Source: Wickerhamiella versatilis
Taxonomy: Eukaryota
Direction: 5' to 3'
Assembly: GCA_030867685.1 (NCBI GenBank)
Contig: JAQOWU010000007.1
Coordinates: forward strand, 434,001-498,000
DNA: 64,000 nt
The notes under the pieces: generated by a model
Told to the model about the DNA's origin: nothing
Database searches by the model: none
The model's input: only the letters and a program-made list of their open reading frames with translations
Position numbers and translations under genes: made by a program
Part shown: one piece after another, positions 13,461-32,407 of the stretch
Position numbering within the stretch: position 1 is the first letter of the stretch
Layout of the letters: every line of letters starts with the position of its first letter

Positions 13461-13590
13461 ATCGGTTAAGCAATATATTGTTACCCTAGCCCTTGATTTA
13501 TCTATTTAGGAAGTATTATGATTATGATGGTTGAGAGAAAGAAACATTAGCTTTTCATTTGTTAGGGCCGAAGTGAGATAATAAGCTTTA

Positions 13591-14886
13591 TTAAACAATG
13601 GACGTGCTCATAGCATCTACTCCCTTGATGGCATTAGCGACTTGTGTAGGTGTGATACGCGGATCTAAGTTGTGAAGCGTGTCACTTTCCGAGCATGCAA
13701 GAGTGCCAATTTTCAGGAGAGATTCCCAGCTTGCGTTTTCGAGGTGAAGATCCTCAAGCGTTGTTGGCATCTTGATCGCACGATAGAACCGCACAAAGCG
13801 TGCGAATTCCTCGTAGGGACGCTGCTCGAGGACCAACTGGCAAAGGGTACCGTAGGCAACTTTCTCACCATGGGTCAACGTGTGGATATCTCCAGGTACT
13901 GCAGTAAACCCATCATGAATGGCGTGTGCAGCAGAGAGACCGCCATTCTCGAACCCAAGGCCCGAAAGTAGAGTGTTAGCCTCCACAACAGCCTCCACTG
14001 CTGGCGTTACAATTTTCTTCTCAACTGCTCGAAGCGCACTGAGACCGTGAGTGAACAAGGTGTCTTGACAAGCACGAGCTATGGCAAGGCCTGCTATGGT
14101 TGGTCGCCACCCCATCATGGAATTAGCATGTCCCCGCACCACGGAGTCCGCCTCGATAAACGTGGCAAGACCATCCGCCATGCCAGAGGCGAAAAATCGA
14201 GCCGGAGCATTGGCACAGAGCCAGGTGTCCACAATGACCATATCCGGGTTTCTGTCGTAGAACCGGTATTTGGAGAAAGCGCCATTCTCGTCGTAGATCA
14301 CAGAAATAGCACTGCAAGGAGCATCCGTGGATGCCAGGGTCGGCGCAACAACCACAAGCTGTTTAAGCTCATCAGCAACAGCCTTGACGGTGTCAATTGT
14401 CTTTCCTCCACCCACGCCAACGACAACATCAGTCTTGACAGTACGGGCTATGTCAACCAGGCGCTTAATCTCATGCTCAGATGCCTCACCACCAAATATT
14501 TCCTTGTGATGAGAAAGATCCACCGTGGCAAATGACTTTACAAGGCGACCTTCGTAGGATTCCCATACTATGCCGTCCACCACAACCAGAGGATAGTGCC
14601 CAATTGCGGCTACATAACGACCCAGGTCTCCCAGTGCACCAGATCCCTGGATATATTTCCCGGGTGATCCAAAAACGTAGTTATTTAACTCCGAAACCTC
14701 GCCCTTAGGATTCAGCGGTACATGATTTTCATCGGGCTCCAACGCCTTTGTCGTGGATCCTGCCTGAAATTGAGCGCGATGTCCTGAGAAAATGCTGCGG
14801 GAAGTATTTGCATTCTTAGCAGCACGGAGAACCCTGGTGCTAGCCCTCGGAATAGCCCTAAATGAGGCCCTGTAAAGGACGAACAT
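13591..14886 (-). CDS. gldA: NAD-dependent glycerol dehydrogenase (iron-ADH family, GldA type) with mitochondrial-type presequence
   Basis: SPGKYIQG, GGGKTIDTVK, PTLASTDAPCS, GFENGGLSAAHAIH, HGEKVAYG; Arg/Ser/Ala-rich N-terminal extension. Confidence 0.92.
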   Translation of the reverse strand: MFVLYRASFRAIPRASTRVLRAAKNANTSRSIFSGHRAQFQAGSTTKALEPDENHVPLNPKGEVSELNNYVFGSPGKYIQGSGALGDLGRYVAAIGHYPLVVVDGIVWESYEGRLVKSFATVDLSHHKEIFGGEASEHEIKRLVDIARTVKTDVVVGVGGGKTIDTVKAVADELKQLVVVAPTLASTDAPCSAISVIYDENGAFSKYRFYDRNPDMVIVDTWLCANAPARFFASGMADGLATFIEADSVVRGHANSMMGWRPTIAGLAIARACQDTLFTHGLSALRAVEKKIVTPAVEAVVEANTLLSGLGFENGGLSAAHAIHDGFTAVPGDIHTLTHGEKVAYGTLCQLVLEQRPYEEFARFVRFYRAIKMPTTLEDLHLENASWESLLKIGTLACSESDTLHNLDPRITPTQVANAIKGVDAMSTSIV

Positions 14887-15364
14887 GTTGTTTTGGAAGA
14901 AGGAAAATTCTAATTCGTTCCTGAATAATTTCCGGGGAATTTATGTCAGCCAAGCATATTTATAGTAGCTAAACAAGGCTCACCTTCGATTCTGGTGGGC
15001 ATAGTAACTATTTATGCCGTGAGAAGATATTGTGTATTACATTAAAATACAAGAAGCTAGACACTATCAAACAGCAAATAGGGTGATATGGGCCTTACTG
15101 CTCGGACCTTTTTCCTTTGTTTCTTAAGTCGTGGCTTTTTCCTTTCTCCGCATTGGGAGATTGATGTAAGGGTTTTTATCGGTCAATGTCCGTTAACACC
15201 GCCCCTGTATATTTTTATCCCTTTGTAGTATGATGAAGAATATTTACTTGTAGAATTTGGCAGGAAATCTAGTAACTTGCCGATTTTGCATAATTTAGGG
15301 AATTGGCAATGTTTTCCCCTCCCACCTTTTTCATTTTTTATATGGTGATTAAGGCTATGAGACA

Positions 15365-15426
15365 GCGAGAGCAATAGCAGCAACAGCAACAGAAGCAGCG
15401 ACAGCAGCAATAACAACAATAGTAAC
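15365..15426 (+). repeat. Imperfect (CAG/CAA)n trinucleotide tract
   Basis: gcaatagcagcaacagcaacagaagcagcgacagcagcaataacaacaatagtaac in the gldA/acetyltransferase divergent intergenic region. Confidence 0.7.
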
Positions 15427-15953
15427 GGGAAAACAGCAGAACAAGATCAGGCACACACTCCGATAAGCCGATGTTTCCCGTTTGATTCCGAAAAGAAAAC
15501 TAGCCAGAAAAATTCCTATCACACACTACAAGCTTTCAAAAGATATTTCATTTCTATATTTTTATGTTCATGACTATCCCAATCGAGTCTGATATCCTCA
15601 ATGTCAACCAAGAATAAGGTGTGCGGCTGGTGATATATCGGTGCCTAAATATTACAAGTTGCTCCTATCTTGCATTGTCCAACCAAACCCGGGAGCGATC
15701 CGATGCTAATAATTTCTTTGCTTCTACTTGACGCGGTCTGTCACTGGTCATACCATCTAAGTAACAATTTGCTACCGTTGTCTCAATAGCTGCACAAGGT
15801 TAGGAACAGGCCACATATGCTAGACTCACCTAAGATTTGGTATGCGTTTATGTGCGTCTTGCTATATAGATGATTATGGAGTTAGTCATATAAAGATTTA
15901 CGAGCTCGGCATCCCCCTTCTTCCCTTCCTGGTAAACCAAGTAAGGCGATCAG

Positions 15954-16625
15954 ATGAGCGTTATGGGCAAGCAAGAGAAGATAGACCATGAACTCTTGTC
16001 GTGGGCCCGCGAAAACCTGCGATATACTGTCGATAACGATAACTACGCCCGCATGATCAGCGGCTTGAGTTACGACTATGATGACCCTAAGCTTGTTAAT
16101 GCCCGTTTAATTACTAGTGAGATGACAACAAACCTCAGAAATCTGCGCCTAGAGGATTTTCCGGGTCCAGTTGAGTATCACACCCGTCGGCAAAATGATG
16201 TTAGAAAGATTCTCGGAAAGTACGGCGAAGAAGTTTTTGCCGAACCATTTATCGCAGAATATGGCTTCAACATAAGTGTTGGATACAATTTCTATTCCAA
16301 TGTCGATGCATTATACTTAGATAGCTCGTTGATCCTTATAGGTGATGACGTTGTCCTGGCACCAGGTGTGACGCTCAATACCCATAGGCATCCTGCTGAA
16401 GGTAAGTTGGATGGGAACGACGCAGAAGGAGCATCGTCTCCGCGCGCTCTTCCAATCAGAATTGGTGATCGCGTGTGGATTGGAGCCAATGCTACAGTAA
16501 TAGGAGGCGTGACCATAGGTGATCGGGCAGTAATTGCTGCCTCCGCCGTTGTGACCGAAGATGTTCCGCCAGATGTAATTTATGGTGGCAGGCCTGGTAG
16601 AGTGCTTCGACATATTGATAATTAA
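15954..16625 (+). CDS. at: LbH O-acetyltransferase (maltose/galactoside acetyltransferase family), sophorolipid At-like, copy 1
   Basis: IDHELLSWARENL..NYARMISG N-terminus as recalled for S. bombicola At; EYGFNISVG, THRHP (catalytic His), VWIGANATVIGGVTIG hexapeptides, GGRPGRVLRHI. Confidence 0.88.
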   Translation: MSVMGKQEKIDHELLSWARENLRYTVDNDNYARMISGLSYDYDDPKLVNARLITSEMTTNLRNLRLEDFPGPVEYHTRRQNDVRKILGKYGEEVFAEPFIAEYGFNISVGYNFYSNVDALYLDSSLILIGDDVVLAPGVTLNTHRHPAEGKLDGNDAEGASSPRALPIRIGDRVWIGANATVIGGVTIGDRAVIAASAVVTEDVPPDVIYGGRPGRVLRHIDN

Positions 16626-16818
16626 GGGAGCTCCTGTATGTTTGAAGTCTTTAGTTTGACGTTTCAATCCGTCAGTGAAATTCATCCCCCCCTCGTGACT
16701 TTAGTAAACCATTTTATTTCAACGCTATAAATTTGGATTTCATTGGGTCTGCTAGCCACTGTCCATAATATACTAAGTGTTGGTGGGTTAAACATTCATG
16801 CACGCACGAATAATTCTT

Positions 16819-18135
16819 TTAACTTTGACGCAGTTGATCATAGCGAAGTACAGAGCTTAATAGCACCTGAAATCCATCCAAAACCTGCTCCGGCGTGCTA
16901 AACTCCTCTGGGTTGTGGGATATACCATCGCGCGACGGTATGAATATCATTGTGGTAGGACAAACCAGCGCCGTATGTGCACTATCATGACCAGCACCAC
17001 TAGTGAGTTTTATGGAGGCATCAGGACCAAAAAGTTCGTCTGAGGATGTCTTAACACATTCCTTGGCCAATTCGTCAAAGTGGCACGCAGGCTGGTCGGT
17101 GAGAACTTCAATATTTGAAGAGATGTCTTTTCCGGTGTGTTTTGTGGTCAGCTTGATAGTGTCCTCCAAGTTATTAACCATCTCTTTTAGTCCTTCATCG
17201 TTGGGATGACGCATGTCAACAACAAAGCTAACTGACTGAGGAATAACATTTACCACCGCCGGCTCAAGCTCGATAATTCCAACACTTGATAAGCCTCCTC
17301 TATCACTGGCAATTCTATTAGCCTCTGTAATGATTCTAGAGGCTGTAAGCAGGGGATCACTGCGCGACCCAAGCGGTGTCGTGCCTGTGTGCTGTGCACG
17401 ACCCCTGAGATTCACTCTCAGCCATTTATAAGCTTGAATGCCCTGAACCAGGCCAATTCGTTTGTTCTGCTCCTCAAGAATAGGACCTTGTTCAATGTGG
17501 AGTTCAAAATGGGCAGCTATAGGCGTCTCCTCAAAGCTACACGGTGTACTCGCATTGTGATATCCAATGCGTTCAAGTTCATTTTTAACTGTCTTCGGCT
17601 CTTTGTCAGTAACAGATTTCAAATTATGAATCTCCTCCACAGAGTGTACACCTGCCCAAACTGAAGAAGACATCATGGACACTGGAAACCGCGCACCCTC
17701 TTCATTAGTCCAATTTATCACCGCAATAGGATACTGGGGCGTATAATTATTTTCCTTGAGAGTACGAATTACTTCAAGGCCTCCCAGGACTCCAAGAACA
17801 CCGTCATAGCGACCACCAGTCGGCTGTGTGTCAAGGTGGGAGCCGATAGCTGTTGGTGGGCCTTGATGTTTCCCCGGATAAACGGCAAAAATATTTCCCA
17901 GCTCATCAATTCGGACATTGCAGCCCAGATCTTTTGTTTGCTTGACAAACCAGTCCCTCACGTTCTTATCCTCGTCGGACAGCGCCAATCTGCAAACACC
18001 AGTTTCTGTTGCTCCTGAGCCCCACCGATTCTTCATACCAAACTTTAAAGCAGTTTCATGGATAGTATCAACGAGACGATGCCTTTGCAGAGTCAATTGT
18101 GGAGTCCGTAGCAACACGTTCGCTAGTCTCTGCAT
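16819..18135 (-). CDS. PYD3: Beta-ureidopropionase / beta-alanine synthase (M20 amidohydrolase)
   Basis: GSHLDTQPTGGRYDG, WTNEEGARF, HFELHIEQGP, SGAGHD, GISHNPEE. Confidence 0.85.
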   Translation of the reverse strand: MQRLANVLLRTPQLTLQRHRLVDTIHETALKFGMKNRWGSGATETGVCRLALSDEDKNVRDWFVKQTKDLGCNVRIDELGNIFAVYPGKHQGPPTAIGSHLDTQPTGGRYDGVLGVLGGLEVIRTLKENNYTPQYPIAVINWTNEEGARFPVSMMSSSVWAGVHSVEEIHNLKSVTDKEPKTVKNELERIGYHNASTPCSFEETPIAAHFELHIEQGPILEEQNKRIGLVQGIQAYKWLRVNLRGRAQHTGTTPLGSRSDPLLTASRIITEANRIASDRGGLSSVGIIELEPAVVNVIPQSVSFVVDMRHPNDEGLKEMVNNLEDTIKLTTKHTGKDISSNIEVLTDQPACHFDELAKECVKTSSDELFGPDASIKLTSGAGHDSAHTALVCPTTMIFIPSRDGISHNPEEFSTPEQVLDGFQVLLSSVLRYDQLRQS

Positions 18136-18528
18136 TTCGCTCTATTTCGCTGGATCGTGCTTAAAGTTTACGTGATGGCTATCACTTATTAGGCCTATAC
18201 ACCCCGCTCCGCTCCGCCAGCTAGCTTGAGTCTACGATTTGTAATTTTGGTAAATAACATTGATTTGACCTTTAGATGCTTACCTTATATGTGATATAAG
18301 CATACATTCTTCACGACTATTGCATAACCTGTTTCAAGACACAGCATATTTTGATAACGCTTCATGCATACGCAAGTCATTTGAGAACTTGAGGTTCTGC
18401 GGTTCCAGAATAAGAACGGTCGAGAGTTCTCACTCTTCTGAATAGGGATATACTATATGCTGCAGATCAGAGATATAGTGATAGGGTTTCAATGCCTTAC
18501 TAACGACTACGACAACCGAGCAAATACC

Positions 18529-19152
18529 ATGAGTGATCGTCCTGTGGAAGCGAAGGAGGTCGACCATAGTTTGCTCAACTGGGCCCGTGAGAATCTAACT
18601 GGGATTCTAGATGATGATAATTATGCAAAAATGATTAGTGGAGTACGTTATGATCCGTCCGTGGATGAGTATGAAGAAGCTCGCCTAAAGTCCAATGATA
18701 TTGCCTATGAGTATTTCAATACCTTGTTGTCAAACTTCTCTAGTCCCGAGGAATTGCTGGAGCATCGAAACAAGCTAATCCAGAAGCTTCTTGGAAAGTC
18801 TGGCAAGGACACTCGCATAGAAGCCCCATTCCATATTAACTACGGGTTTAACATGAGTGTGGGAGAAAATTTTCTTGTTAAACCCAGCTCGTTTTTCGAG
18901 GACGATTCCATTATACGTATTGGAAATAACGTCTCGATCGGTCCTAATGCAAAGATCACTACTGTCACTCGGCTGTTGGGTCCAGATGGAGAACATATTG
19001 TTAATGCACATCCTATTACGATAGGCAATAATGTGTGGATAGGCGCATCGTGTACTATAGAGGGAGGAGTGACCATTGGCGATAATGTAGTAGTTGTATC
19101 CGGATCTTCTATATCGAAGGATGTTCCAGCTAACACTGTAGTGGGAAAATAA
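18529..19152 (+). CDS. LbH O-acetyltransferase At-like, copy 2 (catalytic His apparently lost, C-terminus short)
   Basis: VDHSLLNWARENL..NYAKMISG paralogous to copy 1; YGFNMSVG; VWIG hexapeptides; TTVTRL where the family has T.THP; ends VVGK*. Confidence 0.82.
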   Translation: MSDRPVEAKEVDHSLLNWARENLTGILDDDNYAKMISGVRYDPSVDEYEEARLKSNDIAYEYFNTLLSNFSSPEELLEHRNKLIQKLLGKSGKDTRIEAPFHINYGFNMSVGENFLVKPSSFFEDDSIIRIGNNVSIGPNAKITTVTRLLGPDGEHIVNAHPITIGNNVWIGASCTIEGGVTIGDNVVVVSGSSISKDVPANTVVGK

Positions 19153-19405
19153 TTAAGCGCGATAGTAATTATTTAACTTAGGATCAATCTATATATAATA
19201 CAGTGCCAATGCAGCCATTTTCAGCAAAGGAATGTGGTCTATGTTACAAGTCAAGAGCAACTTATATTGTACATATTAACCACTTCTAGATTCTTCTGAC
19301 TACAGAAAGTGCCCTATAACAGTCTCATCGTTTTAAATTCTAGTATCTCTATAGACTAATACAGCTGGCAATACCTTGTGGAACTTAAACTGAAGTAGAA
19401 ATGCT

Positions 19406-20680
19406 CTACTCGCCTAGTATCTCGGCGATAGACTGTTCCAGAATAACGTCCGATGTATACTTCTCAAGATCCTTTTGGACTACCTCACTCCGTTCCTTGT
19501 AACTCTTGTCATTGAGTATCTTGAACACTGATTCCCTAATTAGTTCTAGACTGGGTGTGGCAGTCTTGAGATCGATTCCTACTCCAGCGTACTCAGCTCT
19601 CCAAGCTACAGCAGGTTTATCTACAGCCTTCCCTCCTATTATTACCGGAACAGCATGTGATAAACTGTGTTGCAAGCCACCATATCCTCCGTTGTACACT
19701 AATGCATCTGTGTGCTCGAAGATATCGTCATAGGGAAGGTAATCGATGACGCGAGCATTTGCGGGGATCTTTACATCCTCAGGAAGGCTATAGCCTTTAT
19801 ATCCAAGAATTGCAACAACCAAAATATCTTTTTCGTCCTTCAAAGCTTCCATGGTGGGAATCAGTAGCTCGTTGTAGTCAATCGAGGACGTGCCTTGGGT
19901 TACTGTGACCACTCGCTTAGCCTTCAATACATCATCCCACCAAGATGGAGGAGTGAAGGGAGCATGTGCGTGAGGCACGCTACCGGCGAATCGGAGATTG
20001 GGCGGTGTTTCCTTCAATGGATATTCAATTGAAGGGGGGCACAGCTGTAGGAAACGGTCGCAGCCATAGTATTGCTGTTCATGAATGAATTTTCGTGGTT
20101 CCTTTGTAGCTCTCAGATCTTGCAAAATCTCCTTAAGTGAGTTTGTTGCCTTAGTGAAAATTGCGTTCACTATCATCTCATAAAGAGCAGGGTTCGCCGA
20201 TGGACCCTCACTAGATTGTAGTAAAACTGGAATAATTCCCAGCGTTATATATGCATCCGCTTTGAGCCCTGGAGCACCCAAGTATAACGGCTGCCCGCCC
20301 ATAAACATGGTTTCTGCAACAAGAACAACGGGAAGCTTGGTGCTGGAAAGTAGCTTTAAGGCCTTCTGCACTGCTTCGAACTGATCAGGGATGGCTTTTG
20401 TGAAAATCTCGTCATAACTGTAACCGGTTTGCTCCACGCCTTCAGGTATCTTCTTCAGAAGCGGAGCAACTCTCTCCAAAGTATCATCAAAAAAGTCACC
20501 TCTACCTCCAACGGGTACAAAGTCTGCTCCTGCGTTTAGAACCTTGTCACGGTAGCTTGGGCCAGTAACAAAAGTTACCTTGTACCCCCTCGCCATCAAC
20601 GGCTTGACAACACTGAGAACAGGGCCCACATGGCCAGCAAGAGGATTAGCACAAGCAAGAATCAACGGTTTGTTGCCCAT
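19406..20680 (-). CDS. ugtB1: GT1 UDP-glucosyltransferase, UGTB1-like (second glucosylation)
   Basis: PLAGHVGP catalytic His, EQTGYS, ETMFMG, VTQGT, YNGGYGGLQHSL, VDKPAVA match recalled S. bombicola UGTB1 features; start MGNKPL at 20680. Confidence 0.88.
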   Translation of the reverse strand: MGNKPLILACANPLAGHVGPVLSVVKPLMARGYKVTFVTGPSYRDKVLNAGADFVPVGGRGDFFDDTLERVAPLLKKIPEGVEQTGYSYDEIFTKAIPDQFEAVQKALKLLSSTKLPVVLVAETMFMGGQPLYLGAPGLKADAYITLGIIPVLLQSSEGPSANPALYEMIVNAIFTKATNSLKEILQDLRATKEPRKFIHEQQYYGCDRFLQLCPPSIEYPLKETPPNLRFAGSVPHAHAPFTPPSWWDDVLKAKRVVTVTQGTSSIDYNELLIPTMEALKDEKDILVVAILGYKGYSLPEDVKIPANARVIDYLPYDDIFEHTDALVYNGGYGGLQHSLSHAVPVIIGGKAVDKPAVAWRAEYAGVGIDLKTATPSLELIRESVFKILNDKSYKERSEVVQKDLEKYTSDVILEQSIAEILGE

Positions 20681-20909
20681 GGTAGAAACAAAACTTAGTG
20701 ACACAGAAGCCTCCCGGTTCGAACCGATCTGCTACAGTCGATCAGATAAGCGGGCGTCTCCGTATTAAATCAGGGTTAGGTTATACCATCATGTGCTCGT
20801 GATAAACCCAACCACCTACGCGGGTGAGTTAGGGTTGGGCTACTATAGGAATCCTGCAAATCTATTCTTGTCCTGTACATACAAAGTTTAACATATCTAG
20901 CTTCTTAAG

Positions 20910-22247
20910 TTAGGCGGCAGTCACCTCCTGAATTGCTTGGTTTAGTATTTCAAGTGAATCATACTGCTCAAGCTCTGACCTGATTTCAGCGCTACGCTTT
21001 TTGTATTTATCATGAGCCAAGACCTCGTCAATAGCTTTCTTAAGCTGCTCCGGGGTAGGCTCACCCGTTTCAAGGTCGATTCCCACCCCGGACCAAGCGG
21101 TGCGCTTTGCAACTTCGGGTTTCTCCTCTGAACCGCCTGCCATGACCATTGGTACGGCAAAATTCAGACTATGCTGAACACCACCATAGCCAGCATTTGT
21201 CACGAAGACATCGGCATGTTGTAATACCTGGTCGTAAGGAAAGTAGTCTAAAAGATGAGCATTCTCGGGCACTTTGTAGTCCTCGGGAAGCGATGCCCCG
21301 CGGCGGCCAAGGATGGCAACAACAAACGTTTCGGGTTCAGTCTTCAAGGCCTCCAAAGTGGGGATTATCAGGTGAGTGTAATCAACTGAATAAGTACCTT
21401 GCGTAACAAAAACTACTTTCTTCGCTGAAAGCATTTCCGGCCACCATTCAGGAGTATCAAAATCCTTTACATGGGAATGAGGCAGCGAACCTGCAAATCT
21501 AACTGGAGGGGGCATGTCAGACCGTGGGTACTCCAGGGATGGAGGACATAGTTGGAGACATACATCCGGACCAAAATAGCTCTCCTCCCAAACGAAGTGG
21601 GGCTCCTCCGTAACTCCCAATTGCTTCAGCAACTCCTTGTGAGTCTTGTTGATCCCTGCAAATACAGTTTCCTCCATCCCCTTGTTGATTGCTGCTTTCC
21701 GAGCACGACCCTCAGGACTTGTGTCCATTTCATGCTGAACACCATCCTGAATACCCTTTGCACGAGGTGTATCAACACTACGGGCAAGGATAGGAAAATT
21801 TCCGATGGTAATCAACCCATCTGGCTTAATACCTGGCGCACCTAGTGAGAGCGGGTGAATACCCATGAAGAGGACCTCGGAAACCACTACTATCTTTTTA
21901 CCTTGCGTAGACAAGGTTTTCAAGGCCTTCTGCAGCGCTTCATATTCCTCAACCAGTGTTCCAGTAAATAAATATTGGAGATCAAATATCAAACGAGGGG
22001 GGCCCGCAGGAACCTTGGGGCGAACGGGATAGAACTGATCTATTGTTTCGTCTGAGTAGTCCGCTTTACCCTCTAAAGGCACCAATGTAGCACCAATTGC
22101 CTCCACTTTATCCTTAAACGCTGTTCCCGTGACAACTGTTACATCATATCCTTTCTCTATGAGGCCCTTGCTCAGGGTGAGAACTGGAGAAACGTGGCCG
22201 GATATAGGACAGGCACAAGCTACAATCAGTGGCTTTTCGGTCGTCAT
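20910..22247 (-). CDS. ugtA1: GT1 UDP-glucosyltransferase, UGTA1-like (first glucosylation of hydroxy fatty acid)
   Basis: PISGHVSP, SEVLFMG, SPEGRARKAAIN, FVWEESY, ILGRRGA, SEEKPEVA match recalled UGTA1 features. Confidence 0.88.
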   Translation of the reverse strand: MTTEKPLIVACACPISGHVSPVLTLSKGLIEKGYDVTVVTGTAFKDKVEAIGATLVPLEGKADYSDETIDQFYPVRPKVPAGPPRLIFDLQYLFTGTLVEEYEALQKALKTLSTQGKKIVVVSEVLFMGIHPLSLGAPGIKPDGLITIGNFPILARSVDTPRAKGIQDGVQHEMDTSPEGRARKAAINKGMEETVFAGINKTHKELLKQLGVTEEPHFVWEESYFGPDVCLQLCPPSLEYPRSDMPPPVRFAGSLPHSHVKDFDTPEWWPEMLSAKKVVFVTQGTYSVDYTHLIIPTLEALKTEPETFVVAILGRRGASLPEDYKVPENAHLLDYFPYDQVLQHADVFVTNAGYGGVQHSLNFAVPMVMAGGSEEKPEVAKRTAWSGVGIDLETGEPTPEQLKKAIDEVLAHDKYKKRSAEIRSELEQYDSLEILNQAIQEVTAA

Positions 22248-23390
22248 GCGTATGGATCAATATGTCTAAGCTAGCAAATTACCTTATAGGTCGTCATTAT
22301 GTAGTCATGATAGTGATCGGCAGAGTGATTAACACACAAGGGGCGCATCTAAGTATCATGAAGTCGGCTGTAGAAATTTTTTATGCTGCGTGGTTTAAAA
22401 TAGAAAAAACACTGTCTACTGCATTTGGAATGGATTCTTCTTTTCCCTAAGAGGAGCATATAATTAAAGTTACTAATGTTGTGGCTGACCGATGTTATGC
22501 AGATCATTAACGTAGGGTGACGGGGTGCCCCGTTTAGAGTGTGCATCGGCCGGAACTGTGCCGGTAAGCATAATATTCCTATGTTTGAATCACAACATAG
22601 TTATTTCACGAGTAAAAGTTGTTCCATAGAAATCTTTTAGTTATTTTAACAACACATTGGAAACACCAGGCACCGAGAGCATGAAAATCACTGTCGTCTT
22701 CCGTCAGTAGTAATAGTTAAAATATCTGCCTCAGCAAAATTGAGGATATTTCACTTTAAGGATTACTCTATGAGAGACCCTAGTTAATCTTGAGCTTGTA
22801 GACAATAGAACTAGGGCCAAGACAGGTCACATGCTTTGAGAAAATCAGATAAGAGTATTTGAGACATCGGCCCGGGATCAGAGATTCACGTGTCTTTTAA
22901 TTCACTGTAGTAATATCTACGCATGAAGATCACCGTTTATACAGACTACCGAAAATCATAATAAAGCCGGCGTACAGAATACGATATACACACTTACATA
23001 CTTTCGCTGCTTTCCGCAAATGATATATTTGAGTTAGTAGAGCTAACTAACTCGTGAAGCAAGCCCCACTAGGGGAATAATTTAAAGCACTATGAAATGC
23101 AAGCTAGGGTCATGTGGGCTAGGGTATTCGCACATATCTGATTTTCACGAGCCCAGGGTGAGATTGCATGTGATTGCTCGGAAAAAGCAGGAAGAACGTT
23201 TATCACCGGTTTAGGAATATAGATCATCCGCTTTTCACCCAATAATATGTTGCCAACTTTATTTTTTTCCCGGTTCTCCAATGTCACCCGCGGTGCACAG
23301 GATATCATGATCTTCACTTACATATACTTAGGTAATCGATCCAAAGGCTTATAGTAACTTCAAAGCCTACCCGAGATATCATATCCGTTA
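22248..23390. promoter_or_regulatory. Divergent (bidirectional) promoter region between ugtA1 and the CYP52 gene
   Basis: Head-to-head genes; contains TCACGAG/CTCGTGA at 22606, 23051, 23145 and TCACGTG at 22886. Confidence 0.65.
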
Positions 23391-24968
23391 ATGTCGGTAG
23401 TGGTAACTCTAGGGTTTTTGTTCCTGGTGACAATTGGAAGTTATCTATTGTTGCATGAATGGGTGTGGCCTATTTGGTATAAGGCTAAGGCCCGTAAGGC
23501 TAAGGCCGGCATCCCAGCATTCAAGTATTCGCACCCATTGGCAATACCACTATTAAGACAGCTGTCCGAAGCTATCAAGGCTAATGAGACCATTAATTAT
23601 TTTTTGGATGAGACTCGTAAAATAGTGAAAAGGAACACCTTCATTCGTCAATTGCCGTTTGATTACCGTATTATCACTAGTGACCCCGACAACGTCAAAA
23701 CCGTTCTGGCCACTAAGTTTAAGGATTTTTCGCTTGGAGTTCGTAGTCCTGCACTTTCTCCTGTGTTTGGTCGCGGTATTTTTACTCTGGATGGCGAGGG
23801 CTGGAAACATTCGCGGGCAATGCTTCGTCCACAATTCGCCCGTGATCAGCTTCGTCGGTTGGATCAGATTTCGGACCACGTTGAGGTACTCATCAAAAAG
23901 ATTGTGCGTGACCAGGAACATAACGGCTTTGTTGATATTCAAAGAGACTTTCATAAACTCACTATGGATACTGCGACAGAGTTTCTCCTTGGCCATTCTG
24001 TAGAATCCCTCAAATCGGACAGTCTCCATCGCGGCATTGAAGTCACTGATACGGAGACTGGGGAAAGGATTTCGGCAGAAGAGTTTATTGAATCTTACAC
24101 CTTTTTGAACGCTTATGCATTCCGTCGTAGTGTCTTCAACAAATTGTACTGGACCCAGAATTCCAAGGAGTTTAAGTCCCATCGTACTCGTGCGGAAAAG
24201 TTCCTTGAGATTTTTGTGAATGAGGCGCTTGAAGCTACTTCTAGTGATTCGGAGAAAAAGACTGAAAACTCTTCGTACATTTTTGCCCATGAGATTGCTC
24301 GGGATACACGTGATCCAATTGAAATTCGCTCGCAGATATTTAATGTCCTTATAGCTGGCCGTGATACAACTGCGTCGACGATGTCATTTATGATTTACTA
24401 TCTGGCCTCACATCCCGATGTGCTCCAGAAAATGCGTGCGGAGATCCTCGAGAACTTTGGCACCGCAGAGGAAGGACGTCAAATCACGTTCGAAATGCTT
24501 CGCCGCTCCCGTTATCTCAACCATGTTATCAACGAAGTACTTCGGCTTGCTCCTATTGTGCCGTTTAACCTCCGTACTGCGGTGCGTGACACAATTCTTC
24601 CCCGTGGTACAGGTCCAAACGGAGACCAGCCTTTATTTGTGCCGAAAGGTATGGTAGTGGCTTATTCTCCATTTATCATGCATCGTGACGAAAAGCTATG
24701 GGGCAAAGATGCGTCGGAATTTGATCCCAGCCGTTGGGAAGGACGTGTGCCATCTAATCATTGGGCTTTCTTGCCTTTTAATGGTGGACCTCGTATTTGC
24801 TTGGGCCAGCAATTTGCTCTTTCTGAAATTGCGCTGACAATGGTTCGTCTCTTCCAGAGGTTCGAAACTCTTGAGAAAGGCCCAGACTTCAGTGAGAAAA
24901 CCCCTAAGTGGGCTAATACGCTCACCCTTCACAATGCAGATCCCGGTGTGGTCGTTCGTTTCAAATAA
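23391..24968 (+). CDS. CYP52M1: Cytochrome P450 CYP52, CYP52M1-like fatty acid omega/omega-1 hydroxylase
   Basis: GIFTLDGEGWKHSRAMLRPQF, AGRDTT, EVLR, FNGGPRICLGQQFA; LLHEWVWPIWY, ISAEEFIESY and PGVVVRF resemble recalled CYP52M1. Confidence 0.9.
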   Translation: MSVVVTLGFLFLVTIGSYLLLHEWVWPIWYKAKARKAKAGIPAFKYSHPLAIPLLRQLSEAIKANETINYFLDETRKIVKRNTFIRQLPFDYRIITSDPDNVKTVLATKFKDFSLGVRSPALSPVFGRGIFTLDGEGWKHSRAMLRPQFARDQLRRLDQISDHVEVLIKKIVRDQEHNGFVDIQRDFHKLTMDTATEFLLGHSVESLKSDSLHRGIEVTDTETGERISAEEFIESYTFLNAYAFRRSVFNKLYWTQNSKEFKSHRTRAEKFLEIFVNEALEATSSDSEKKTENSSYIFAHEIARDTRDPIEIRSQIFNVLIAGRDTTASTMSFMIYYLASHPDVLQKMRAEILENFGTAEEGRQITFEMLRRSRYLNHVINEVLRLAPIVPFNLRTAVRDTILPRGTGPNGDQPLFVPKGMVVAYSPFIMHRDEKLWGKDASEFDPSRWEGRVPSNHWAFLPFNGGPRICLGQQFALSEIALTMVRLFQRFETLEKGPDFSEKTPKWANTLTLHNADPGVVVRFK

Positions 24969-25169
24969 AACCCAACGCTTTCTTCGCATTTCATTGCTGT
25001 TTTTGGATATCTATATGCTAAATAAATAATTCTAGTATTATTAAATTTTACCTCCTCGAAAAATGGTTAGATAGCATGCTTACCCACTTACAATGGAGAA
25101 TCAGCTACTAAAAGTGACATTCCATGACAATTAATACATGAACTGCTAGTTGCTCTGCTAGCCAAGCGC

Positions 25170-25206
25170 ACATATACATATATATAGATATAGATATAGA
25201 TATATC
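25170..25206 (+). repeat. (TA)/(TAGATA) microsatellite
   Basis: acatatacatatatatagatatagatatagatatatc between the convergent CYP and MDR genes. Confidence 0.7.
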
Positions 25207-25252
25207 GTTTAAGCCTTAGTCGTTTCATTAGTCTGCGGCCTCTAGTATTCAA

Positions 25253-28200
25253 TCAAGACTCGAGACCTTGAAGATTTACAAGCTCCGCATAACGTCCGCG
25301 CAACGCTAGCAACTCTTGATGAGTTCCCTGCTCCGCAATTTTTCCCCCCTCAAACACGTAAATAACATCCGCTTTCTGAATCGTTGACAGCCTATGCGCA
25401 ATAGTAACTGTCGTACGCCCCTTAGCCGCCTCATCGAGTGCAGCCTGGACGATTCGCTCACTGTCACTATCCAACGCCGCTGTACTCTCATCCAGGATTA
25501 GGATACGGGGATCACTAATTAAGGCTCGTGCAATTGCAACTCGTTGTTTCTGACCACCAGAAAGCAGAGTTGATGATCCATAGCCGCTTATTGTATCATA
25601 GCCATTTGGTAGCGACATAATAAAGTCGTGAATGTTAGCTTTTCGCGCAGCAGCCTCAATCATCTCATCTGTCAAATCCGCCACATCTCCGGCCCAGCCC
25701 ATGATAATGTTTTCTTTGATGGTACCAGAATAAAGCATGGGCTCTTGTTGCACTAATGCCATATGACTTCTGAGAGACTTGAGATTGTATTCACGAATAT
25801 CTTTGCCATCAATAAGTACATTACCTCCTAGAACATCATAGAACCTTTCGATTAAGCCAACCGATGTCGACTTACCGCATCCACTTGGTCCTACTAAGGC
25901 AATATACTGTCCTGGTTTAGCTTTGAGATTCACACCTCTAAGCACAGGAACTTCTGGCCTCGTAGGGTATCGGAAATAAACCTTACGAAACTCAAGATCT
26001 CCTTCAATAGAGTCATCGACCATTATGCCGCCCTTTGACCAGCTATCAATCCAAGGTTGTGCAGTCAATATACGGTAAATATTCTGTGCTGCCTTGAAAG
26101 CCTTGGTCAAATCGGGTGAATACGAGAATATCTGACCAGCAGACTGGCCACCCAAAATGATACTGAGGAATGCAATGAGATTCGTCTTGACAGTAGCTTG
26201 ATGGTTATGCATGACCTTGCTTCCCCACCAGAAAACGAGAGCATCCACCCATTGAGTAAGCCCCTGCGATAACCCATACATAATAGCTGAGAGCATAAGC
26301 TCGGTACGAGATCGCTTTACCTGAGCATCTATTACAGATGAATACTGGCGAACAACACCTCGTTCACGTGTCAAAGACTGGACAGTTCGTATGGCACTGA
26401 CATAAGAACTAGCGAGACTTCCACTACCTTCGTAGACTTTGCGGGCGTGTTCGCCAAGCTTGGTAATAATCCAAACTCGTAGAAAACCGCAGGCGAGAAG
26501 GATTGGAGTTGTCGCCGTAGCAACTAGACCGATGCGCCAGTTCCAAGGTATACCAGTAGCAATACCAGAGACTAAAATAACAAGGGACTGTAATATTTGA
26601 CCCATTGTTGCACCACCCATACCCTCAATTGCCTTGGATTCCTTCGCTAGGACAGAAGTGAGAGCACCTGGTGTATTACCAGGGTAATCAAAGAAAGCAA
26701 TATCCAAGCGGAGGATCTGCTTGAAAAGTTCAAGCCGTATATTACGAACCAAACGATCTGATGCCAAACTGAGTACAAAAGTCATTACTGCACATGCTAT
26801 GAACATAATGCAGCCCAGGAAAAATAGCCATCCTGTCAAGACATTCACATTATGCCTCATCATACTGATGGATTTTGTAATGTCAGTCATAAGCCCCTGA
26901 ACAATGAAACCTGTGATCATGGCTAAAGAAGGGAACGAATATCCCATAATGAATGCCGCAAAAATACCTATGCAGATGTAAATACGTTCATTCCGGTTCA
27001 AACTCCATAGTAGGCCCATGTATTTCAAGAAATATCCATCTACTGGATCCTTAATTCCAGGAACATTTTCTGAACCAAGCTTCCCCTTTTCAGGACTAGA
27101 CGCAATGATAAACGACTCCCTATTACCTGCGTCAGCGGAAGCGATGGCATCTTCTTGTACAATAAGACCTTGTCCTTCATCCCCACTGTCACTTCCATCA
27201 TCATCCTCTTCTTCGCCATCATCGTTTCTGCGCTTTAGCTTGGTCACCTGCTGGGCAGCTACAAGCTGCGAATATGTGCCATTACGGCTCAAAAGTTCGC
27301 TATGCGTTCCTTGTTCCACTATTTGACCTGATGAAAGCACAACAATTTTATCTGCATTTTTAACCGTTGAGAGTCTGTGCGCAATTACTATGGTCGTACG
27401 GTTATGACTAGCACGGTCCAATGCTTCTTGCACAATGCCCTCGGACTTAGTATCTAGTGCAGATGTAGCCTCGTCAAGCAGCAATATGGGAGGATCCGAG
27501 ACAATGGCGCGTGCAATACAGATTCTCTGCTTCTGTCCTCCACTTAGAAGGAAGCCTCTATCACCGACATTGGTTTCGAATCCATCTGTCAAGGTTTGAA
27601 TAAAGTCGTACGCATTTGCATTTTTACAAGCAGCAATGACCTTCTCACGTTTGTCTTCCTCAGCTGCATTCTCCCATGGGGAACCAATCAAGCCATAGGC
27701 GACATTTTCGAATATAGTATCGGCAAATAGAGTCGGTTCCTGTTGCACATAGCCTATCTGTTGCCGTAACCACCTGAGGTTCAATTTATCAATACTAACG
27801 CCATCAATCAGGATCTCGCCCCGTATCGGAGTATAAAAACGTTCCAATAGGCCTACAATAGTCGACTTACCTCCTCCAGATGCACCCACCAAGGCTACCA
27901 TCTTTCCCGCTGGTATGTCCAGAGAAAAATCGGGCAGTATAAGGGCCTCGGGGCGTGATGGATACCGAAAACGTATATTTTTAAGGACGATGTGACCTTT
28001 CACCAGTTCAGGGGAGATTATTTCTCCATTATCATCCTGACTATCCACAACAGGTCTCCGATTAATTACGCGAGCTAGTGACTTGACAGCAGAAATACCC
28101 TTCACAATGAAACGTATACTGGGTGCAATATTACCGAGCTGAAATGAACCGATTAGCATTGCCAGGATTACGCCGAATATGCTACCAATGACGTTTGTAT

Positions 28201-29251
28201 TCGTGGAATCACTCTCTAGAGACCAACCAAGAATACGGGAACCTTCCCAAAATCCCAATGAGTAGGTAAACATCACCACGGCCCATATCACCGCCAGCAT
28301 ACCACTCAAAGCTATTCCTGCATGGTAACTATGGCCTGCGGCGACCACCAGTGCGCGATCAAACTTCTTTGTGAGTACTTCCTGGGAGTTGAAAGCCACT
28401 GTCGTCCGGATAGCACTAAACGCTTCCTCTGCAATAGTAGATCCCTGCTGGAATGCAGATTCACTGGCAGCTTGGAATTTACCCATGGTGCCTCCTCCTA
28501 TAGCCATAGCACAAAAATTCACGAATACCGCACTTAGAAGAATGAGCGCGATTTTCCACTGTAAAATAAGGGAAATCACTATCGCAGCAACAAAGGTGGA
28601 TAGACCCTGTACAACAGTTGCTGTATGGTGAAATGCCTCTTGAATTGAAGTGGTGTCATTTGTGATACTCGTAGTTATTTGGCCAGAACCGAGCCGGTCG
28701 AAAAATGCTATGTTCTGACTGATTACAGCAGAAAGGAAATTCTTTCGCCATCGGCCAGAGATCAATTCACCTCGGTCCTCTAGGAGGTATGATTCTATGG
28801 CTGACGAGCCAATAATACCAACACCAATGTACACAAAATATTTAGCGAGATGTCCAATATCACTCATAAAATTTGGCGGGTCTCCTTGAGTCTCCGTAGT
28901 GAACTTGTTGATGATGGCCTTAACCACAAACGTTAAACATGGTAGTGCGACACCGTGCACAATGGCGAAGAATATGCCAACGCAGAGAACAAACTTATCA
29001 AACGCATTAGTGGGCTTCACTATGGTGAAAAGGTTTGCACTAACTTCGTCATATTGGATTTGTCTTCTCAGAGGTTCAGCCTCCTCAGGGTCCAGTTCCC
29101 GAAGTTTTCTCTCAAGATCACTGATTTCTTCGCCATCACCCTTCTCGTCATCATCGTAATGTACATCCCGCTTCTGCTTCTCCGGATTTGAACCGTCCAA
29201 TCCCCTCTTCTCGTCCCTCATGCTACCAGCCGGAGAGGAGAAATCCGTCAT
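25253..29251 (-). CDS. mdr: ABCB/MDR full-length ABC exporter (sophorolipid transporter-like)
   Basis: TMD-NBD-TMD-NBD; GASGGGKST and GPSGCGKST Walker A, LSGGQKQR twice, DEATSALD/DESTAALD; first ATG at 29251. Confidence 0.92.
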   Translation of the reverse strand: MTDFSSPAGSMRDEKRGLDGSNPEKQKRDVHYDDDEKGDGEEISDLERKLRELDPEEAEPLRRQIQYDEVSANLFTIVKPTNAFDKFVLCVGIFFAIVHGVALPCLTFVVKAIINKFTTETQGDPPNFMSDIGHLAKYFVYIGVGIIGSSAIESYLLEDRGELISGRWRKNFLSAVISQNIAFFDRLGSGQITTSITNDTTSIQEAFHHTATVVQGLSTFVAAIVISLILQWKIALILLSAVFVNFCAMAIGGGTMGKFQAASESAFQQGSTIAEEAFSAIRTTVAFNSQEVLTKKFDRALVVAAGHSYHAGIALSGMLAVIWAVVMFTYSLGFWEGSRILGWSLESDSTNTNVIGSIFGVILAMLIGSFQLGNIAPSIRFIVKGISAVKSLARVINRRPVVDSQDDNGEIISPELVKGHIVLKNIRFRYPSRPEALILPDFSLDIPAGKMVALVGASGGGKSTIVGLLERFYTPIRGEILIDGVSIDKLNLRWLRQQIGYVQQEPTLFADTIFENVAYGLIGSPWENAAEEDKREKVIAACKNANAYDFIQTLTDGFETNVGDRGFLLSGGQKQRICIARAIVSDPPILLLDEATSALDTKSEGIVQEALDRASHNRTTIVIAHRLSTVKNADKIVVLSSGQIVEQGTHSELLSRNGTYSQLVAAQQVTKLKRRNDDGEEEDDDGSDSGDEGQGLIVQEDAIASADAGNRESFIIASSPEKGKLGSENVPGIKDPVDGYFLKYMGLLWSLNRNERIYICIGIFAAFIMGYSFPSLAMITGFIVQGLMTDITKSISMMRHNVNVLTGWLFFLGCIMFIACAVMTFVLSLASDRLVRNIRLELFKQILRLDIAFFDYPGNTPGALTSVLAKESKAIEGMGGATMGQILQSLVILVSGIATGIPWNWRIGLVATATTPILLACGFLRVWIITKLGEHARKVYEGSGSLASSYVSAIRTVQSLTRERGVVRQYSSVIDAQVKRSRTELMLSAIMYGLSQGLTQWVDALVFWWGSKVMHNHQATVKTNLIAFLSIILGGQSAGQIFSYSPDLTKAFKAAQNIYRILTAQPWIDSWSKGGIMVDDSIEGDLEFRKVYFRYPTRPEVPVLRGVNLKAKPGQYIALVGPSGCGKSTSVGLIERFYDVLGGNVLIDGKDIREYNLKSLRSHMALVQQEPMLYSGTIKENIIMGWAGDVADLTDEMIEAAARKANIHDFIMSLPNGYDTISGYGSSTLLSGGQKQRVAIARALISDPRILILDESTAALDSDSERIVQAALDEAAKGRTTVTIAHRLSTIQKADVIYVFEGGKIAEQGTHQELLALRGRYAELVNLQGLES

Positions 29252-29855
29252 ACACGACGACAATCTAGCGGTATCGCGGCAATGCTCTAGGTTATTAATA
29301 TGTTTTCTCAGACGGCGCAGATCACACGTGACGTGGGCATGTAATATCACAAGAAGTTCAAGTCTATTTCGTTGGTCTCTTATAGAAACTTACTTATCAA
29401 AATCAAAACCGTCCTCGACCGTGGAACAAGGTCGTGGTCGTTTGGCGATATTTCGTGGGTTAGGTGATGTGTAGCTTCCAATTAGGGTTAGGTTACTTCT
29501 TACTAGGCTGGTATTACGGATATTCGCCGACGATTAAACTAGGGTACAGGTGTAAGATTAGTTTTGTTAATCTCATCTTACCCTTTTGCTAATGGTCTCT
29601 TTATTTACATGAGCGACTTTTTTTCTCTCTTTTCTTTAGGTGAAGGTATTGATTTGTAGTAAACTGCCGGGGTCTGCTTATCTTGGGCCTTTTCCATATC
29701 TAAATGTCGTGCTCTAACGTCCGTAATATTTCGACCTATCTCCGGATTAATCTTCATCGTCTGTCCTATATTGACAATTATGTTTATGCACATGCCTTAT
29801 TGATGGTAACTTCTATCTCTTGAACAGTACTGCTGCGTAAGGTCTCTGCTCTGGA

Positions 29856-31379
29856 CTATATTGCCTCACGATTATCCTGCAGCCATTTGACATGTAAACT
29901 TAAAAATTCACAATACTGATCAACAGGCTCCGAGCTCCAGTCTTTGGGAACAAAATTTTGTTTCTCACCCCAGTCACAGGCGACATCTCGCATTGTTGTC
30001 CAGATTTTTAACTCGATGTCATCCTCACGACCCAATTTATCTTGTACGCTCGAAAGTGGCCCAAAGAAGCGTTTGAGTGGTTTACCATTACCGATTGTTC
30101 TCAAGTTAAGTTTCAATACCTGACAATGTATAGCCATATACTTTGGACGAAGATCTTCTTGACTTCCGTAATGTATTTGATGATCCTGTTCAAAATCAGG
30201 CTGAACCATTGCGAAGCCCTGTATGTCACCTTTTTTATAATAACCTAATTCTAGAGGCATTCCATGTGTCTGATACCATGCCTCATTCAGTACATGAGCA
30301 GCTGCGGCCCAAACTTCCTTGTCCCCTTCACCAGGAGCAGATTGCGTCAAAAGCGGCCACCAAATATTCGAATGCACATTGTAGTAGAGCGAGAGAGCCA
30401 GTGACCTGAAATGCTGTGATTTTTTAATAAACATCTGCCCACTCTCAGTGGCTCGACCTGTAATAGCATTATCGCGATCAACTTGTAACAATGTAATGCC
30501 GTTCTCGTTGAGTTCAGGGCCAAGTTGAATGTCCATAATATCGTAAAAGTAGGGTGATGTTGTCCTTGGCCAGAAATCAGAATTCAAAATAAAGCCATTC
30601 TGTTCATAGGTTGGCGTCGTAAAATATTGCTCGATGTCCACCAGAGGTAACGAATCTGGGTCAGTATAGTATATATTATCAAACTTTGACCCCAGCAATG
30701 CCAGTGCCTTGTTCACGTATGTTCCATCGCCCTTGAATTTCGGATACAAAGCACCATACATGACTTCTAAACAAATGCATTGGACGTTTATCGTTGGGAA
30801 AAGTATATCACAATAATAAGGTTCCCAGAGACCTATATCAGATATAAATATCTCTATTGGGATATTTGGGTTAATGCTCCGTATCCACCTAATGCATACC
30901 AATGCTGAGGGAAACAAATAGCCATCTGCTGTCATGACAACCCCATTGCCCTCTACCTGCCCCGATACCAGCTTGTCAGGCAGAATATTAAGTATGTGTC
31001 TGTGCACATTTCGAAGTGTTTCAACTTCTTGGCGATTAACTTTCAAGTATTTGCCGAGCTGCCGTGTAGTCGCTGGCTTCCTTCCACCATAGCCGAATTT
31101 TTTCATGTCAGGGCCAATCTTCCGCTTGTATTTCTGGAGTGCAGAGACTTCACAGGGTACATCGAGCATATGTGAGACCGCATGTGCTAAGTCGCCCAAA
31201 GTTGCTTCTCTTGGACCAGGTTTTATTTCTGGCAGTAAAGTCTGGTTATTTTCTTTCAGGAATACCTCTCTATCACTAGATAATCCCGAATCTTGGAGAC
31301 CGAAGCTGTAAAGCAATAGGAGAGCACAGGACAGAATTAAACAACTTGATATCCGTCTCGTCCTCCTTATTGCTGACAT
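29856..31379 (-). CDS. GT71 alpha-1,2-mannosyltransferase (MNN2/MNN5 family)
   Basis: Type II TM, KALALLGSKFDNIYYTDPD, DFWPRTTSPYFYDI, TESGQM, GEGDKE. Confidence 0.88.
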   Translation of the reverse strand: MSAIRRTRRISSCLILSCALLLLYSFGLQDSGLSSDREVFLKENNQTLLPEIKPGPREATLGDLAHAVSHMLDVPCEVSALQKYKRKIGPDMKKFGYGGRKPATTRQLGKYLKVNRQEVETLRNVHRHILNILPDKLVSGQVEGNGVVMTADGYLFPSALVCIRWIRSINPNIPIEIFISDIGLWEPYYCDILFPTINVQCICLEVMYGALYPKFKGDGTYVNKALALLGSKFDNIYYTDPDSLPLVDIEQYFTTPTYEQNGFILNSDFWPRTTSPYFYDIMDIQLGPELNENGITLLQVDRDNAITGRATESGQMFIKKSQHFRSLALSLYYNVHSNIWWPLLTQSAPGEGDKEVWAAAAHVLNEAWYQTHGMPLELGYYKKGDIQGFAMVQPDFEQDHQIHYGSQEDLRPKYMAIHCQVLKLNLRTIGNGKPLKRFFGPLSSVQDKLGREDDIELKIWTTMRDVACDWGEKQNFVPKDWSSEPVDQYCEFLSLHVKWLQDNREAI

Positions 31380-32407
31380 ATCAAACCAATTCGGAGCCTG
31401 TGAATAGTACACATAACGAAGTCTCCGATAGGGATCATGCTAGATATTAATTCTGATACCTGTATCTCTTGATGAAGATAAGGCTTTATCCACTGTGCCA
31501 CGACAAATTTCTTATATACTAAGTCCTTTAGCTCCATTCCAGTTCGCGCCAGTGAATATTACGGTCTAATATTTACGAGTATATATATTTATTCATTTAT
31601 TAATATAGATATTAAATATTCATCGTATAAGTTTTAGCCTGAACGATCTCGCTTGGAGCTTAAGTGCGTGAGGGGGTGCGCTCAACAAATCACAGTTATG
31701 ATTCAGAATTTGAGATCATAATTTGTTGCTTTGTACTGTTCACAAGTCGCCATCAGATATCTCTAAAATGACGATCTTCACTCAATTTAATCTCTTTGAG
31801 ACGCATTTACTCTAAATAACAAGGTTATTTAATTTATTGTTTTTATCAGCTTATGAAATTTGTCGTCGAAGAGTATGCTTATATGTAGAACTATATTATT
31901 TAGCCCCAATCAGTCAGTATGCAGAGATATTAAATCTGCTTCCTTTTGCTTAACACATCGAGAAGAGACGAAAAGAAACATAGAATTTAATCTAATATAA
32001 GGACGTTTTATCATCTCAACGTTTTCTTATATGTGCCGCGTCACTTTTTGAAACAAATCACAATTATATAATAAAACATTGTCCAACCAGTCTCAGCTAT
32101 TACAGCAGAGATGGAGGGTTTGAAAGGAGCCGGGAGGTGTGCCCTAACCCCAAATGTTGAATTCTGCATCATTTGTGAAGGATCCCCTGCTCGAGTTTAA
32201 GATGGATCAGGCCGATAAATCCTGAATTTAAAGAAGTAGGATACATATAGATATATATTTGTAGGGTTTTATAACCATGATATGCCAGGATCGCTCGCTT
32301 TCTGTCTTATAGCCAGCGATCCGTATCTACTGGGAAACTGGAGATCCTCAACGAGTCGTGTGACTAAGTTAAGCTGATCAAGGTATAGTGATCTGTGGGT
32401 GTGAGCT

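Follow-up and report, generated by a model that had tools for sequence, protein, structure and literature searches.

Do the seven genes at positions 15954-29251 of contig window JAQOWU010000007.1 (the window being the whole stretch of 64,000 nucleotides that was analysed, in which all positions are counted) make up a biosynthetic cluster for a glycolipid of the sophorolipid type, as the initial annotation of this DNA had proposed? Sophorolipids are commercial biosurfactants, structural variants of which are sought, and natural variants of the cluster are one route to new chain or acetylation patterns. We found the proposal to be largely right and assign a probability of about 0.7 to the reading that the locus is an intact, conditionally expressed sophorolipid-type glycolipid cluster of the Wickerhamiella/Starmerella clade, identical or orthologous to the cluster reported by Linder from Wickerhamiella versatilis. 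The observations that directly carry this reading are the families of the encoded proteins, the intact open reading frames (ORFs), the orthology of one UDP-glucosyltransferase (UGT) to UGTB1 of Starmerella bombicola, the status of CYP52M1 and UGTA1 as nearest relatives of the P450 and of the other UGT, respectively, and a joint RNA signal of these three genes. In the available part of Linder's survey, UGTs of the sophorolipid kind are reported from only three other budding-yeast species (PMC6723986). Since such enzymes are rare in budding yeasts and two of them are encoded here beside a P450 nearest to CYP52M1, it is unlikely that the cluster has arisen by chance.

Seven intact genes and their relatives

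ORFs were called with the standard genetic code and ATG starts, and protein families were taken from Pfam. The 13,298 bases of the locus hold seven intact, non-overlapping ORFs, which have the coordinates and strands listed by the initial annotation and belong to the families it named: a hexapeptide sugar O-acetyltransferase (at1), a PYD3-like beta-alanine synthase, a second acetyltransferase-like protein (at2), two UGTs of the GT1 family, a P450 and an ABCB transporter (Table 1). An additional ORF of 245 amino acids, antisense within the P450 gene, was regarded as spurious. RNA reads over 11600-31500 revealed no spliced joints, which gives no indication of introns, and between strains that are 2-3% apart all 12 of the listed indels (of 14) are intergenic.

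The two UGTs of the locus are 47% identical to each other. Among the 120 matches listed for a UGT profile search, UGTB1 of S. bombicola (P0128) is present and UGTA1 is not; the latter (P0514, Swiss-Prot entry UGTA1_STABO) was found as a non-representative member of the P0127 cluster. In pairwise BLASTP comparisons, the UGT encoded at 19406-20680 scores best with UGTB1 (53.5%, 456 bits, against 49.9%, 429 bits with UGTA1), and the UGT encoded at 20910-22247 scores best with UGTA1 (50.1%, 462 bits, against 44.5%, 405 bits with UGTB1), which is a reciprocal-best pattern. In a careful tree of 21 rows, nine yeast UGTs, UGTA1 included, form a clade with support of 100/99, and the named rows outside it come from filamentous fungi. 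Within this clade UGTB1 is grouped with the 19406-20680 protein and its relative P0124 (100/99, and 99 in another tree), and the lineage so formed enters a four-way polytomy with three pairs, namely 20910-22247 with P0123, P0125 with P0126, and UGTA1 with P0129. When the 20910-22247 pair was forced together with the UGTA1 pair, the cost was 5.8 log-likelihood units (p 0.187 in the approximately unbiased test), so that this grouping is neither shown nor rejected; further trees gave similar results on its position. Hence, of the two labels that had been attached to these genes, ugtA1 and ugtB1, both fit the reciprocal best scores, and the second is upheld by the tree as well: judged by sequence relationships, the orthology of 19406-20680 to UGTB1 is secure, while the tree speaks neither for nor against the first, and we refer to the 20910-22247 gene as UGTA1-like.

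Two side observations concern the UGTs. P0125 and P0126, of 429-430 amino acids, constitute a fourth lineage in the yeast clade (100/100), beside those of UGTA1, UGTB1 and the A1-like enzymes. Besides, the exact UGTA1 sequence P0514 also has an NCBI accession in which it is labelled a hypothetical protein from an assembly of Macrococcus, where its contig has 1632 bases; this bacterial assembly seems to be contaminated with yeast DNA.

The P450 possesses the heme motif FNGGPRICLG. Among the 120 matches listed, its closest named match is CYP52M1_STABO (P0003; 51%, 588 bits), CYP52N1 follows with 44% and 453 bits, and the protein P0002, which carries no name, shares 78% identity with it. A careful tree with 22 rows assigns the P450 and P0002 to a clade with support of 100/100 that also comprises CYP52M1, P0006 and a 12-row group containing CYP52N, and they are placed outside that last group (100/99); a quick tree of 49 rows shows the same polytomy. 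The description of this enzyme as CYP52M1-like is therefore confirmed by score and by tree position, though the clade that it forms with CYP52M1 is weak. We conclude from these comparisons that CYP52M1 is the nearest characterised relative of the P450, and orthology of the two is plausible, if weakly supported.

The acetyltransferases at1 and at2 share 41% identity. The best solved relative of at1 is the maltose O-acetyltransferase 3srt (E 4.4e-35), to whose TAYHP the THRHP stretch of at1 is aligned with the His kept, and in at2 TVTRL is aligned to TATHP of 2ic7. The His of this TxxHP motif, which from the literature on LacA and Maa we take to be the catalytic base of the family, is present in 13 of the 16 aligned family members and replaced by Arg in all three rows of the at2 group. 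Proteins of the at2 group end approximately 11 residues before those of the at1 group at the C-terminus, and other family members are longer still. In a quick tree of 61 rows, at1 and at2 belong to a clade made up of 17 yeast rows only (99), from which the maltose/galactoside acetyltransferases of bacteria are separated; the at1 group (at1, P0242, P0243 and P0244) and the at2 group (at2, P0241 and P0245) are clades with support of 99 each and are sisters of each other (81). As at1 and at2 each have their own ortholog in a sister species, their duplication must be older than the split from that species, and a recent tandem duplication is ruled out by these separate orthologs together with the identity of 41%. 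The statement that At is duplicated thus holds in so far as two paralogs are present, but they are old paralogs and not a recent copy, and at2 lacks the conserved His. To judge from this replacement, at2 may be inactive or may have acquired a changed role. The N-terminal extension of at2 contains a short 'GF.C' stretch common to it and its counterpart in the sister species (P0245).

An exhaustive search with residues 1-1200 of the transporter gave as the top match a protein of 1304 amino acids (P0361, 56% identity), in addition to an 894-amino-acid fragment (P0362, 64%) and further full-length proteins of 45-41% identity. Eight of the 14 representatives with a source name are called Pmd1, Mdr or ABCB and the other six, including a Komagataella protein of 45% identity, have uninformative names; a search of the Atlas likewise led to generic ABCB clusters of the MDR/pmd1 type. 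None of the 14 is named STE6, and the names given to the top representatives by their sources lend no support to identifying the transporter with this mating-pheromone exporter; this comparison involves names only and has no anchor in a tree. We classify the protein on these similarities as an MDR-type ABCB transporter.

Expression of the locus in public sequence runs

Four public runs were mapped on 11600-31500, and reads with less than 95% likeness were dropped. X23 and X24 are raw RNA-seq data from one sample of a strain that is approximately 3% different (in X23, 237 reads match at 99+% and 4111 at 95-99%). X18 consists of contigs, which we guess to be derived from RNA and whose depth is a poor measure of expression. 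The X18 contigs have depths from 9 to 931, and their ends, which bear remnants of adapters, coincide with gene borders; between the UGTA1-like gene and the P450 gene there is a gap in coverage, with contigs ending at 22239 and beginning again at 23399, and adapter remnants are present on either side of it. Because the depth varies about 80-fold between adjacent genes and the breaks fall into intergenic DNA, X18 behaves as RNA and not as genomic DNA. X19 contributed four short pieces of low depth, which were not used for any inference. According to an index of sampled words, at least half of the words of the stretch 19300-29290 occur in 18 listed runs, and some part of it occurs in 20 listed runs from 11 studies, mostly metagenomes and isolates from food and food fermentation, with one coded species label; none of the listed runs is recorded as RNA. 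The study to which X18 belongs also includes X21 and X22, in which next to none of the sampled words occur.

In X18, the depth of the two UGT genes and the P450 gene exceeds that of their neighbours by a factor of 10-20, with 11-44 for the flanking genes, and in X23/X24 the same three genes are jointly near silent (Table 1). This suggests that the UGT-UGT-P450 core is subject to an on/off switch, which at1, the PYD3-like gene and the transporter gene do not closely follow.

Such a pattern raises the possibility that only the two UGTs and the P450 are a functional unit, that the acetyltransferases, the PYD3-like protein and the ABCB transporter are neighbours with regulation and roles of their own, and that the seven-gene cluster is partly a positional accident. 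The RNA data are in its favour, as depths of 371-931 for the three genes in X18 contrast with 30 for at1 and the PYD3-like gene, 51 for the transporter gene, 72 for at2 and 11-44 for the near flanking genes, and in X23/X24 at1 and the transporter gene are expressed at a time when the three genes are at 0-1.7. The protein data add that the PYD3-like gene product is a full-length match to a housekeeping enzyme, the beta-alanine synthase of yeast (1r3n; E 9.4e-130, residues 13-436 of the query on residues 26-449 of the chain), that at2 is devoid of the conserved His, and that neither AT nor MDR of S. bombicola is among the matches listed for the acetyltransferases and the transporter. On the other hand, the S. 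bombicola cluster comprises the same families (PMC6723986, as far as its account of that cluster extends), at1, at2, a UGT and the P450 apparently occur together in the sister species, at2 has about twice the depth of its neighbours in X18, and contig depth is the poor measure mentioned above. We therefore consider a three-gene unit rather unlikely as the full account of the locus. One component of that account we do accept for a single gene: on the simplest reading of its sequence, the PYD3-like gene is probably a working housekeeping gene of pyrimidine catabolism and a bystander between the acetyltransferases. Its role in the cluster is left open in the portion of Linder's paper that deals with it (PMC6723986).

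Comparison with known clusters and the predicted pathway

The gene families argue for the sophorolipid-type assignment when the locus is compared with the cluster of S. bombicola (Van Bogaert et al. 2013, as related in excerpts of PMC6723986, PMC12461148 and PMC12983215), with which it shares five: a CYP52M1-like P450, two GT1 UGTs, a hexapeptide acetyltransferase and an ABCB transporter. In Starmerella, UGTA1-CYP52M1 and UGTB1-MDR are conserved antisense pairs, according to the part of a 2026 paper that treats gene order (PMC12983215). The first of these pairs has been kept here, the UGT gene 20910-22247 and the P450 gene facing away from each other across 1143 bases, and the second has been broken, the transporter gene being located tail-to-tail with the P450 gene; the initial annotation had been correct in describing the gene order as rearranged. 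The locus further differs from that of S. bombicola in that the UGT genes are in tandem, the protein identity of the P450 and UGTs is only 50-54%, there are two old acetyltransferase paralogs, one of them without the conserved His, a PYD3-like gene is embedded, and the cluster adjoins the region of ACC1 with no visible chromosome end.

A closer parallel is found in the literature on W. versatilis. Linder (2019, Microorganisms 7:247, PMC6723986) described a rearranged putative sophorolipid cluster in this species, with homologs of UGTA1 and UGTB1, a second acetyltransferase gene, a putative PYD3 and a CYP52 that groups with CYP52M1; as worded in the accessible text, this is exactly the gene content of the present locus. 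The novelty that the initial annotation implied is accordingly not supported, as the same make-up had been published. According to the relevant passage of a 2025 review (PMC12461148), W. versatilis inhabits soy sauce and soybean paste. Gene content and habitat favour W. versatilis as the source, and with it the identity of the locus with the published cluster; should the DNA belong to a close relative instead, the locus would add a second example to the kind already published. An attempt to match the locus to the W. versatilis coordinates of Linder by gene length gave no match, nor is there at codons 15-19 of the P450 gene an alternative ATG that would yield the published lengths.

The cluster also appears to have a counterpart in a sister species, with relatives of at1, at2, the UGTA1-like gene and the P450 (P0243, P0245, P0123 and P0002) at 68-78% protein identity. 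For the clusters of all four proteins the longest contig is given as 50,959 bases, and the four genes are therefore probably carried on one contig there. A similar logic is known from the cellobiose-lipid (ustilagic acid) cluster of Ustilago maydis, which combines P450s that hydroxylate fatty acids with a glycosyltransferase, with acyl/acetyltransferases and with an ABC exporter, and differs in its basidiomycete host, in the lineages of its enzymes and in having a cluster-specific zinc-finger regulator.

By analogy with the S. bombicola pathway, as summarised in the pertinent section of PMC12461148, we infer all of the chemical steps and the product as follows. The P450, a predicted fatty-acid omega/omega-1 hydroxylase supplied by a reductase encoded elsewhere, would hydroxylate a long-chain fatty acid at its omega end or at the adjacent position. 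The UGTA1-like enzyme (20910-22247) would attach glucose to that hydroxyl in the first glucosylation step, and the UGTB1 ortholog (19406-20680) would add a second glucose to yield a sophoroside. The sugar would then be acetylated by at1, in which the conserved His is kept, and the product would be exported by the ABCB transporter. In this scheme at2, with Arg in place of His, would be inactive or have a changed role, and the PYD3-like gene would be a bystander.

The product or the glycosylated acceptor need not be a classical sophorolipid: it might be a glucolipid, a bola-type or differently linked diglucoside, or the genes might hydroxylate, glycosylate and export a hydrophobic compound encountered in salty food fermentations. 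Such a deviation could be reconciled with the separation of the A1-like UGT lineage from UGTA1, the identity of only 50-54% to the S. bombicola enzymes, the different set of acetyltransferases, one of which is without the His, and the presence of this DNA in food-fermentation metagenomes (as shares known from the index only). Nevertheless, the UGTB1 ortholog and a P450 nearest to CYP52M1 speak for chemistry like that of S. bombicola, nothing in the data points to a different acceptor, and we regard a non-classical product as unlikely. That the cluster is a decaying relic which makes nothing now, as the near silence of the three genes in X23/X24, the loss of the conserved His from at2 and the absence of a reported product in literature titles or abstracts could suggest, is very improbable in view of seven intact ORFs, the absence of intragenic changes among the 12 listed indels between strains 2-3% apart, the very high depth of the three genes in X18 and the conservation of the genes in the sister species.

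Several observations nevertheless weigh against the assignment of all seven genes to a sophorolipid-type cluster. The UGTA1-like gene is not grouped with UGTA1 in the tree, where the two belong to different branches of the four-way polytomy, and the pair of the P450 and P0002 joins CYP52M1 with weak support (76/65.7). The AT of S. bombicola is neither among the 120 matches listed (of at least 7,999 candidates) nor in the seven acetyltransferase clusters that were looked up, and its MDR is not among the transporter matches listed or in the clusters looked up. As at1 and the transporter gene are expressed when the three core genes are silent, and rise little when these are high, co-regulation covers three genes and not seven; the zero depth of the core in X23/X24 could itself be due in part to strain divergence, as reads below 95% were dropped. 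The W. versatilis CYP52 genes of Linder's Table A1, in the form in which it was available (PMC6723986), span 1530, 1524 and 1533 nucleotides, versus 1575 nucleotides plus stop here. The S. bombicola cluster is described as subtelomeric in the corresponding portion of PMC12461148, and gene-dense DNA flanks the present one over at least 15.9 kb on the left and at least 34.7 kb on the right, with no visible chromosome end. Finally, among the papers listed for versatilis, no title or abstract opening contains a report of glycolipid production. In what is available of the 2025 review (PMC12461148), W. versatilis is absent from the species shown to retain or use the cluster.

Surroundings of the locus and significance

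Table 1. Positions of genes and other features in the window, with depths in the X18 contigs and per-column depths in X23/X24
Feature	Positions	Strand	Length	Families and remarks	X18 piece	X18 depth	X23/X24 depth
Left-flank genes	5414-14886			MFS transporter; alpha/beta hydrolase of 276 amino acids; TAP-like alpha/beta hydrolase of 606 amino acids; iron-type alcohol dehydrogenase			
Zn2Cys6 transcription factor	9393-11426			left flank			
Left hydrolase					11602-13455	33.5	15-40
Iron-type alcohol dehydrogenase					13466-14907	43.9	44-84
at1	15954-16625	+	223 amino acids	Hexapep, Hexapep_2, Mac; sugar O-acetyltransferase, maltose/galactoside acetyltransferase type	15237-18253 (with PYD3-like gene)	30.3	25-39
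PYD3-like beta-alanine synthase	16819-18135	-	438 amino acids	Peptidase_M20 (M20 amidohydrolase)	15237-18253 (with at1)	30.3	2-8
at2	18457-19152	+	231 amino acids	Hexapep, Mac; paralogous hexapeptide acetyltransferase-like	18530-19188	71.6	3-6
UGTB1 ortholog	19406-20680	-	424 amino acids	EryCIII-like_C/UDPGT; GT1 UDP-glucosyltransferase	19161-22239 (both UGTs)	370.7	about 0-1.7
UGTA1-like	20910-22247	-	445 amino acids	GT1 UDP-glucosyltransferase	19161-22239 (both UGTs)	370.7	0
Divergent intergenic region	22248-23390		1143 bases	between UGTA1-like and P450 genes; presumed shared promoter			
CYP52M1-like P450	23391-24968	+	525 amino acids	p450, E 6.4e-67	23399-24403	741.8; later bin 931	0-1.6
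ABCB transporter, full-size, MDR/Pmd1-type	25253-29251	-	1332 amino acids	two ABC_membrane and two ABC_tran	25215-29247	51.2	6-20
Mannosyltransferase					29550-31421	11.5	20-36
Acetyl-CoA carboxylase ACC1	32408-38941		2177 amino acids	all ACC domains; right flank			
D-2-hydroxyacid dehydrogenase paralogs (two)	40994-41983, 47591-48583			right of cluster			
Second large ABC transporter	49215-53531		1438 amino acids	right of cluster			

The genes of the left flank are found at ordinary depth in both RNA data sets and do not track the UGT-UGT-P450 core. On the right, ACC1 begins about 3 kb past the transporter gene, with one mannosyltransferase gene in between; although acetyl-CoA carboxylase serves fatty-acid supply, its location next to a cluster for a fatty-acid glycolipid is probably due to chance. 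The window contains no tRNA genes and 14800-30000 contains no repeats of at least 25 bases, so that there is no sign of a mobile element or of recent duplication at the borders of the cluster. Just upstream of at1, X23/X24 reads turn into unlike sequence at 15847, 15889 and 15948 (28-126 reads per site), which indicates that the strain from which they come is structurally different at the left border. Farther to the right, the 2-kb bins 54001-56000 and 58001-60000 have a low G+C content of 0.37-0.38, compared to approximately 0.44 elsewhere.

As a prediction, the cluster is already in print (PMC6723986) and it is not a new kind of system. The present analysis adds the secure orthology of one UGT to UGTB1, the placement of the A1-like UGT in a polytomy of four yeast lineages, the age of the acetyltransferase duplication together with the replacement of His by Arg in at2, the assignment of the transporter to the MDR/Pmd1 type, and the location beside ACC1 and away from any visible chromosome end. 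It also adds indications, from public RNA data, of an on/off switch for the UGT-UGT-P450 core, a lead to conditions that deserve a test. For the biology of the organism we mention, as an idea that we consider rather unlikely, that a salt-tolerant yeast of food fermentations, for which no biosurfactant has been reported, may switch the three core genes to very high levels under some condition and then produce a glycolipid distinct from the classical sophorolipids. It could be distinct in the attachment of the first sugar, given a UGT lineage apart from UGTA1, and in acetylation, which would be carried out by one active acetyltransferase and may be modulated by its His-less paralog.

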